A stretch of DNA of 64,000 nucleotides. It comes from Escherichia coli. GTDB taxonomy: Bacteria > Pseudomonadota > Gammaproteobacteria > Enterobacterales > Enterobacteriaceae. Shown piece after piece: positions 20,949 through 21,611 of the stretch; position 1 is the stretch's first letter, and each line of letters begins with the position of its first letter. Position numbers and translations under genes: made by a program. The stretch lies in NCBI RefSeq assembly GCF_003018115.1, contig NZ_CP027457.1; one strand, 5' to 3'. The notes under the pieces are model-generated. The model saw only the letters and a program-made list of their open reading frames with translations. It was not told the DNA's origin and did no database searches.

Positions 20949-21018
20949 TCTTTAAAGCCCTGCGGGCTTTTCGCCTTATATCCCCGCCCGCATTGGGCGA
21001 GGGTTTACGGCGTTTTTC

Positions 21019-21300
21019 GCTAAAGGAATTGTTGTTAGACGAAGCCTTTTTCGCCTTTACCGGATCGATGCCAACCGAGATGTCTTTCCTCGCAGTCCAT
21101 GCCTTATCCCTTGCCTCCTGCAAAGTCATTAGCGGATATTTTCCTACGGTCAGGATTTTCTCCTTACCGTCAATCTTGTAGCGAAGCTGCCATACCTTTT
21201 TCCCTGACACAGGGACATAAAGGTACAGGCCATTACCATCGAGAAGGCGGTATGGTTTTTCTTTCGGCTTTGCTGCTTCAATCTGCTTAACGGTGAGCAT
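21019..21300 (-). pseudogene. intS: 5-prime fragment of P4-type (IntS-like) integrase truncated by the IS element
   Basis: ORF-track frame 20911..21336; N-terminal Arm-DNA-binding region MLTVKQIEAAKPKEKPYRLLDGNGLYLY..., homology lost after about codon 106 where IS sequence begins; lies beside argW. Confidence 0.8.
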
Positions 21301-21460
21301 GGGTAAAAATCCGGTGGGTAAAATTATTTTATCCACTTTTTACCCGTCATGGTGTGCGGCTGTCAACGATCTGACGCGAACCATGTCGAACTGTGAATCT
21401 ACGGAAGGCTTGATATTCAAGGGATTTTGCGGACTGGTACGGATGGGAGCGAACTGATAA

Positions 21461-21536
21461 ATGGTGTCCCCTGCAGGAATCGAACCTGCAATTAGCCCTT
21501 AGGAGGGGCTCGTTATATCCATTTAACTAAGAGGAC
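21461..21536 (-). tRNA. argW: tRNA-Arg (anticodon CCU)
   Basis: Reverse complement gives cloverleaf with anticodon loop CUCCUAA, T-arm GGTTCGATTCC, 3-prime CCA; classic integration site for P4-like elements. Confidence 0.93.
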
Positions 21537-21611
21537 AATGCGGCATGAGTATACCCGCTAATGGACTGCGGGGTAAGTACGCTGCCGCTCGATTGCTTAA
21601 ACCCTCGCCAT

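Follow-up and report, generated by a model that had tools for sequence, protein, structure and literature searches.

A single ISEc46 element with the junctions of two insertion sites links the csc flank to a truncated argW integrase gene in Escherichia coli

In the 64,000 nucleotides of Escherichia coli DNA analysed here (the window), a single copy of the insertion sequence ISEc46 bears the left-end (LE) junction of an insertion into intS, the integrase gene beside argW, and the right-end (RE) junction of an insertion into the 3' flank of the csc segment. It is virtually certain that one intact ISEc46 occupies the place of the interval between two same-strand TTAG sites. The likeliest cause, and a probable one, is RecA-dependent recombination between two directly oriented ISEc46 copies. 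The element itself is ordinary; what is unusual is its context, with flanks that come from two different insertion sites. The features of the locus are listed in Table 1.

Table 1. Features between cscB and argW, in window coordinates
Feature	Position	Strand	Description and evidence
cscB	17930-19177	+	Sucrose:H+ symporter, last gene of the csc segment; 415-aa ORF; Pfam LacY_symp, E=1.1e-193
csc 3' flank	19178-19256	.	Reaches the right-end junction of the IS; homologous to all csc+ genomes as far as 19256
Predicted guide-matching sequence of the TnpB omega-RNA	19256 down to ~19237	-	CAGGGCTAAGCATTTTACTA; predicted from the ISDra2 rule (PMC8612924)
ISEc46	19257-21019	- (active/top strand)	Complete element, IS200/IS605 family, 1,763 bp; RE at 19257, LE at 21019
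RE subterminal hairpin	19266-19285	-	CCTCGCCC GACA GGGCGGGG, 9 nt from the RE cleavage point; DNA fold
tnpB	19297-20466	-	RNA-guided endonuclease, 389 aa, intact; Pfam HTH_OrfB_IS605, OrfB_IS605, Cas12f1-like_TNB
tnpA	20523-20948	+	Y1/HUH transposase, 141 aa, intact; Pfam Y1_Tnp, E=5.8e-39, model positions 1-121 of 121
Chimeric ORF	20911-21300	-	129 aa: 94 IntS residues and 35 residues from the IS left end; stop at 20911
LE subterminal hairpin	20982-21003	-	CCCTCGCCC AATGC GGGCGGGG, 16 nt from the LE cleavage point; DNA fold
TTAG target/transposon-adjacent motif (TAM)	21020-21023	-	CTAA on +; intS codons 93-94 (TTT AGx), not IS; present in uninterrupted K-12 and O157 intS
intS' pseudogene	21020-21300	-	281 nt, codons 1-94 of the integrase gene of the argW prophage; encodes just the arm-type DNA-binding domain
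intS promoter/attL-side spacer	21301-21461	.	Integrase start to argW 3' end, intact; contiguous 98-99% alignment to K-12 and O157:H7
argW	21462-21536	-	tRNA-Arg(CCU), intact; integration site of the lost prophage; ARAGORN; Rfam tRNA, 63.4 bits

The only tRNA gene that ARAGORN finds in the window is argW, tRNA-Arg(CCU). Directly downstream of its 3' end and in the same orientation, which is the arrangement of a tRNA-island integrase, an open reading frame begins with the ATG at 21300 on the minus strand and heads away from argW. Over residues 1-94 its product matches K-12 IntS at 100% identity (tblastn), and the same holds for the integrases of Sf6, CUS-3, Kapi1 and VT2phi_272. The intS' product matches Pfam Arm-DNA-bind_3 (E=4.8e-26, model positions 1-82 of 83) and no other domain; there is no Phage_integrase match, the family of the catalytic domain with its R-H-R-Y residues, on the truncated ORF. 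Position 21020 is the exact start of nucleotide homology to the intS of K-12 and O157:H7. At the identical locus of strain F9792, the RefSeq annotation made by PGAP describes 21019-21300 as an incomplete Arm DNA-binding domain-containing protein that is missing its C-terminus.

The remnant shares residues 1-94, position, orientation and the attL-side spacer with the IntS proteins of argW-integrating elements (K-12 CPS-53/KpLE1, Sf6, CUS-3, Kapi1 and VT2phi_272). Compared with the IntS locus of K-12 CPS-53/KpLE1, however, the window lacks residues 95-385, which form the core-binding and catalytic parts, as well as attR and the cargo. For residues 95-385, blastn gives no match in the 64-kb window, and the best tblastn match there has E=0.35; the K-12 CPS-53 cargo has no match in the window either, and no same-strand repeat of the argW region of at least 11 nt, as expected of an attR, occurs anywhere in it. 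The intS' fragment is a pseudogene, and since both the catalytic domain and attR are gone, the remnant is incapable of excision.

These results bear out the original prediction, which had an IntS-like integrase beside argW cut by an IS at about 21019. The breakpoint is at codon 94, position 21020, one base away, and the predicted N-terminal 100 or so residues followed by IS-derived sequence correspond to the chimeric ORF of Table 1. The prediction had also reported the catalytic domain and cargo as absent, and neither IntS 95-385 nor the CPS-53 cargo was matched in the window. Comparison with the intS-bearing argW regions of K-12 and O157:H7, one of the checks it had proposed, confirmed the truncation, with 877 nt of intS missing, and a second, the search for a partial argW direct repeat, gave the negative result just described. 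Two findings that would have spoken for an intact integrase were looked for and rejected: a full-length frame cannot be restored by correcting a sequencing error, as 877 nt are absent, and the far side of the IS holds the csc 3' flank common to all csc+ genomes in place of an attR and an integrase 3' end.

The element between the two flanks is 99.5% identical over its full 1,763 bp to hundreds of copies annotated by PGAP as ISEc46 family transposase, an identity that refers to these annotated genomic copies and not to the ISfinder reference sequence. Its ends were set against four independent copies, all of 1,763 bp, located near ygbA/mutS, in oppD, beside asnS and in an IclR-type regulator gene. 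It differs from other ISEc46 copies at 7-9 nt, and both ORFs are open; TnpB has 1-2 amino acid differences from other copies, and TnpA is identical to the common allele WP_000064874.1. The tnpA and tnpB genes are divergent, as in IS605, and the window holds this one copy of ISEc46 only. ISEc46 is also found on E. coli plasmids at ~99.5% identity, and a search of E. coli plasmids found the argW/csc ISEc46 locus on none of them. Of the 23 papers that name ISEc46, the 15 listed seem from their titles to be resistance or genomics surveys.

In place of terminal inverted repeats, both ends of the element carry similar subterminal imperfect hairpins (CCTCGCCC..GGGCGGGG). The distances of these hairpins from the cleavage points on the minus strand, 16 nt and 9 nt, are the LE and RE geometry of the family, and the active strand is therefore the minus strand of the window. 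The putative guide RNA of TnpB has no match to an Rfam family, and the RNA fold of 19237-19420 on the minus strand is unremarkable, with z=-1.8 only.

Transposons of the IS200/IS605 family make no target duplication and are not known for classic adjacent deletions. What can be followed for ISEc46 is its target motif. CTAA, which is TTAG on the active strand, lies directly outside the LE in 5/5 independent ISEc46 copies, and the RE flanks of these copies are mutually unrelated. In an empty-site test at oppD, the two flanks, joined with a single CTAA, form a sequence that 5,422 genomes contain uninterrupted at 100%, and ISEc46 therefore inserts 3' of TTAG without duplication. This rule matches the behaviour described for the family, whose members insert 3' of a fixed target that is TTAC for IS608 and TTGAT for ISDra2 (PMC8612924). 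Because insertion is 3' of TTAG and leaves no duplication, a simple ISEc46 insertion has TTAG on its LE side and an RE that abuts the base after that same TTAG. CTAA has a frequency of about 0.0016 per position in the window, so an arbitrary breakpoint would seldom abut it.

Set against this rule, the two ends of the element in the window belong to different sites (a slash marks each junction). At the LE, the uninterrupted intS of K-12 and O157:H7 reads ..AAATCGCA CTAA AGGAATTG (..ATCGCA/CTAA/AGGAATTG), and the window reads IS/CTAA/AGGAATTG; on the active strand this is CCTTTAG/LE, as for an insertion into intS codons 93/94. The RE lies 79 bp past the cscB stop codon (19177), in agreement with the predicted position of this IS end near cscB, a gene annotated in relatives as oligosaccharide MFS transporter or cscB. 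Here, IS-free csc+ genomes read ..GCCCTG/CTAATAATC, and the window reads ..GCCCTG/IS; after 19256, the IS-free genomes continue with CTAA TAATC.., where a DUF4942 gene remnant begins. On the active strand the RE is followed by CAGGGCTAAG, and IS-free genomes have TTATTAG/CAGGGCTAAG, so the element is joined at exactly that CAGGGC. Both TTAG sites are on the same strand, and two ISEc46 copies inserted there would therefore be direct repeats. The IS-less joint of the two flanks (GCTTAGCCCTG/CTAAAGGAATTG; CCTTTAG/CAGGGCTAAG) was found in 0/5,426 complete E. coli genomes. Since the flanks are contiguous in none of these genomes, a deletion or recombination linked to the IS has occurred, as had been predicted.

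An unreduced form of the locus is seen in O157:H7 strain MB9-1, where the order is cscB, DUF4942 remnant, recombinase, P22-like tail and ejection genes, full intS and argW. From this layout, 8,471 bp (L010, 1374-9844) are absent from the window, with ISEc46 in their stead. The interval contains the DUF4942 remnant, a 23-nt attR copy of argW, the P22-like prophage remnant and the 3' 877 nt of intS; O157:H7 serves as a model layout only and may differ in cargo from the true progenitor. The O157:H7 attR is a copy of the argW 3' end with one indel and is located 361 bp beyond the csc-flank TTAG. In K-12, attR comprises 16 nt (L004, 4219-4234). K-12 also has a second 16-nt repeat (L004, 4528-4543), matching the internal argW segment GGAATCGAACCTGCAA, between torI and yfdT, which may have been left by an earlier integration.

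The closest full intS allele, 99.5% identical, is that of strain EC26, where it heads a decayed P22-like prophage. By its sequence relationships, the lost element was probably an argW-integrating prophage of the Sf6/CUS-3/Kapi1 (P22-like) type or of the short-tailed Stx type, and not a P4-like island. The original description called the integrase P4-type, and IntS is grouped with the P4-like integrases; the label does not extend to the element that was lost. The idea that the csc segment had been fused to an argW island also needs qualifying: the IS does bridge the two, but csc adjoins argW in every csc+ strain, and the stretch removed is the prophage (or its remnant) and about 360 bp only.

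Among 5,426 complete E. coli genomes, an intS/attL fragment with full-length intS is present in 1,883, and the ISEc46-bridged allele is rare, with seven carriers. They include O169:H41 enterotoxigenic E. coli (ETEC) and two unrelated animal isolates, in at least three flanking backgrounds. Five of the seven (the O169:H41 ETEC strains and LR882990) match the window at 100% over a further 24 kb. For GF3-3 (guinea fowl, Gambia) and ET350 (frog, China), identity is confined to a tract of ~5 kb that surrounds the IS (about 18744-23832 and 17499-22971, respectively), beyond which the flanks have diverged by 1-1.5%. The carrier genomes show no difference inside the IS. The same junctions, the same IS allele and the identical ~5-kb tract indicate that the event happened once; the bridged allele was later spread between E. 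coli backgrounds, or retained across them, via homologous recombination.

The comparison of carriers also brought out variation elsewhere in the window. Between mlaA and fadL lies a 422-aa ORF (23774-25042, minus strand) that is very AT-rich and Asn/Asp/Ile-rich; K-12 has yfdF there, and in O157:H7 and GF3-3 the place is taken by different hypothetical genes of about 1,030 nt. With 107 mismatches, this 2-kb bin differs more between the window and GF3-3 than any other, and the site looks like a hypervariable replacement locus. The alignment with ET350 is interrupted at 36406-38778, over the minor subunit/adhesin part of the yfc fimbrial operon, and has 124 mismatches at 34001-36000, which indicates allelic replacement in that operon.

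The argW prophage has been lost in other ways in other strains. Genomes of the EC6868 type show a precise attL x attR loss that leaves cscB-DUF4942'-argW. In 2013C-3492, a separate microhomology deletion runs from attR to intS codon ~65: intS is cut at about that codon and joined to the attR region via a short microhomology (..TCTCCTGCAAAGTC..; L001, 2490-2560). The cscK and cscB genes of this strain are also annotated as frameshifted. 2013C-3492 was the one inspected of six genomes that cover at least 80% of a 1,250-nt query representing the IS-less joint, and it was rejected as an example of that joint, as 358 bp of DUF4942/attR sequence intervenes and the deletion is a different one.

How the interval was lost is best approached from its endpoints, which are the two bonds that ISEc46 transposition makes at two same-strand TTAG sites. 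Under recombination between two copies, ISEc46 would have inserted at one TTAG, and a second copy would have landed at the other TTAG in the same orientation, either by a local hop or as a second acquisition. RecA-dependent recombination of these direct repeats would then have deleted the interval together with one ISEc46 copy. By analogy with the TnpB system of this family, a TnpB cut at the vacated donor joint, specified by the TAM TTAG and a flank-derived guide, could stimulate such recombination (PMC8612924). The outcome resembles direct-repeat IS recombination in general, in that a single copy remains, bordered on its left by sequence from one site and on its right by sequence from the other. 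The usual test of mismatched target duplications is unusable for the ISEc46 family, in contrast to that general case, but the fixed TTAG provides an equivalent one.

Recombination between two copies predicts precursors with a single insertion. The junction of the first, intS::ISEc46 with the rest of intS after the RE, is GTAAATCGCA/GTGACTGCTCCCC, and that of the second, csc-flank::ISEc46 with the DUF4942 remnant before the LE, is ACGGCGTTTTTCG/CTAATAATC. Both were absent from the 5,426 complete E. coli genomes and from metagenome contigs. Nor do the seven carrier chromosomes hold other ISEc46 copies, and there is no sign of a multi-copy past in the lineage. These absences count against two copies. 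Replication geometry bears on this as well. The active strand (minus) is on the leading-strand template, as judged from a GC skew of +0.037 on the plus strand over the whole window, and IS608 and ISDra2 of the IS200/IS605 family prefer the lagging-strand template (PMC8612924). Two insertions are a little less likely because the leading-strand template is the side disfavoured by the family.

The main rival, possible but less probable, is an adjacent deletion catalysed by TnpA from a single ISEc46 copy in intS (TTAG/LE..RE/TGCGATTT). On single-stranded DNA, TnpA would cleave at the RE and at the distal TTATTAG/CAGGGC in place of the LE-adjacent TTAG, and the 3'-OH of the RE would be joined to CAGGGC; the interval would be released as a circle, and neither a second copy nor RecA would be needed. 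The two endpoints are exactly the phosphodiester bonds that TnpA cleaves (RE/flank and TTAG/flank), tnpA is intact, and the missing second copy and precursors are as this explanation would have it. The chemistry would be the strand exchange of normal integration (PMC8612924), extended by analogy to a distal site. On the other side, no documented natural example was found, and the O157-like interval has 28 CTAA sites, of which the deletion ended at the most distal with nearer ones on offer. The top strand is on the leading-strand template, where the single-stranded substrate would be scarcer, and the single-strand product must outlast replication or repair. We consider it rather unlikely that the hybrid junction is the footprint of a TnpA deletion of ~8.5 kb from TAM to TAM by a single element, in which a TnpB break may have assisted. 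The joining of the RE to a distal TTAG and recombination between two copies yield products of identical sequence, and are inseparable by sequence alone.

It is very improbable that ISEc46 entered an older deletion, in which a 4-bp TTAG/TTAG microhomology had joined intS codon 94 to the csc flank and thereby created the TTAG into which the IS later inserted. The interval is bounded by the same tetranucleotide, which makes a microhomology deletion formally possible, and in 2013C-3492 such a deletion, between attR and intS, did remove the same prophage. Against this, the IS-less joint that such a deletion would have produced is the one missing from all the complete genomes searched, and the IS would have had to choose this particular TTAG, when the motif occurs at roughly 0.002 per base across the genome; the coincidence is of order 1e-4.

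Still more remote is an inversion or translocation by which the IS moved the 3' part of intS, the cargo and attR elsewhere in the genome. The window shows 64 kb only and cannot alone exclude relocation, but a search of the seven carrier chromosomes with a composite query of the locus and the 877-nt intS 3' part, at megablast sensitivity, found one place only in 7/7, with neither the intS 3' part nor a second ISEc46 elsewhere. This search, which had been suggested with the original prediction, largely refutes relocation, and an inversion would in addition require two inverted IS copies. An assembly or sequencing artefact concealing a full-length integrase can practically be dismissed, since 877 nt are gone, which is not a frameshift, and seven independent complete assemblies are identical over the locus.

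The locus can be placed among the known forms of the variable argW-dsdCXA/csc region of E. coli. For this region PMC4366372 cites Jahreis et al. (2002) and Moritz and Welch (2006), and the title of the latter calls the argW-dsdCXA island highly variable. The window shares with that region the presence of csc in place of dsdC and most of dsdX beside argW, and an occupancy of argW that varies between strains; it differs in that ISEc46 bridges the csc flank to intS codon 94. The replacement of dsdCX by csc takes place beside the argW recombination hotspot (PMC4366372). Homology to K-12 (12198-14048, emrY-dsdA-dsdX') breaks off within dsdX, and the csc segment (cscR, cscA, cscK, cscB) starts at that point, 14048. 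Of dsdX the window retains a 3' fragment, and it has no dsdC, in keeping with descriptions of csc+ strains.

Much of what is found here is already known: ISEc46, IntS, the variable argW-csc/dsd region, the truncation flagged by RefSeq and the loss of prophage remnants mediated by IS elements. The one feature that is mildly instructive is the hybrid TTAG junction in a transposon family that leaves no target duplications. The value of the finding lies mainly in annotation, as it accounts for an orphan integrase fragment at argW without a prophage in this lineage. It also indicates that deletions associated with IS200/IS605 elements are detectable by the fixed target motif, although the family leaves no target duplications, by asking whether the RE flank is the base that follows the target motif in IS-free relatives. 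If the single-copy TnpA explanation were true, "peel-and-paste" elements could produce precise adjacent deletions unaided by RecA or a second copy, and deletion would join the known activities of a transposon family that currently attracts interest on account of TnpB.
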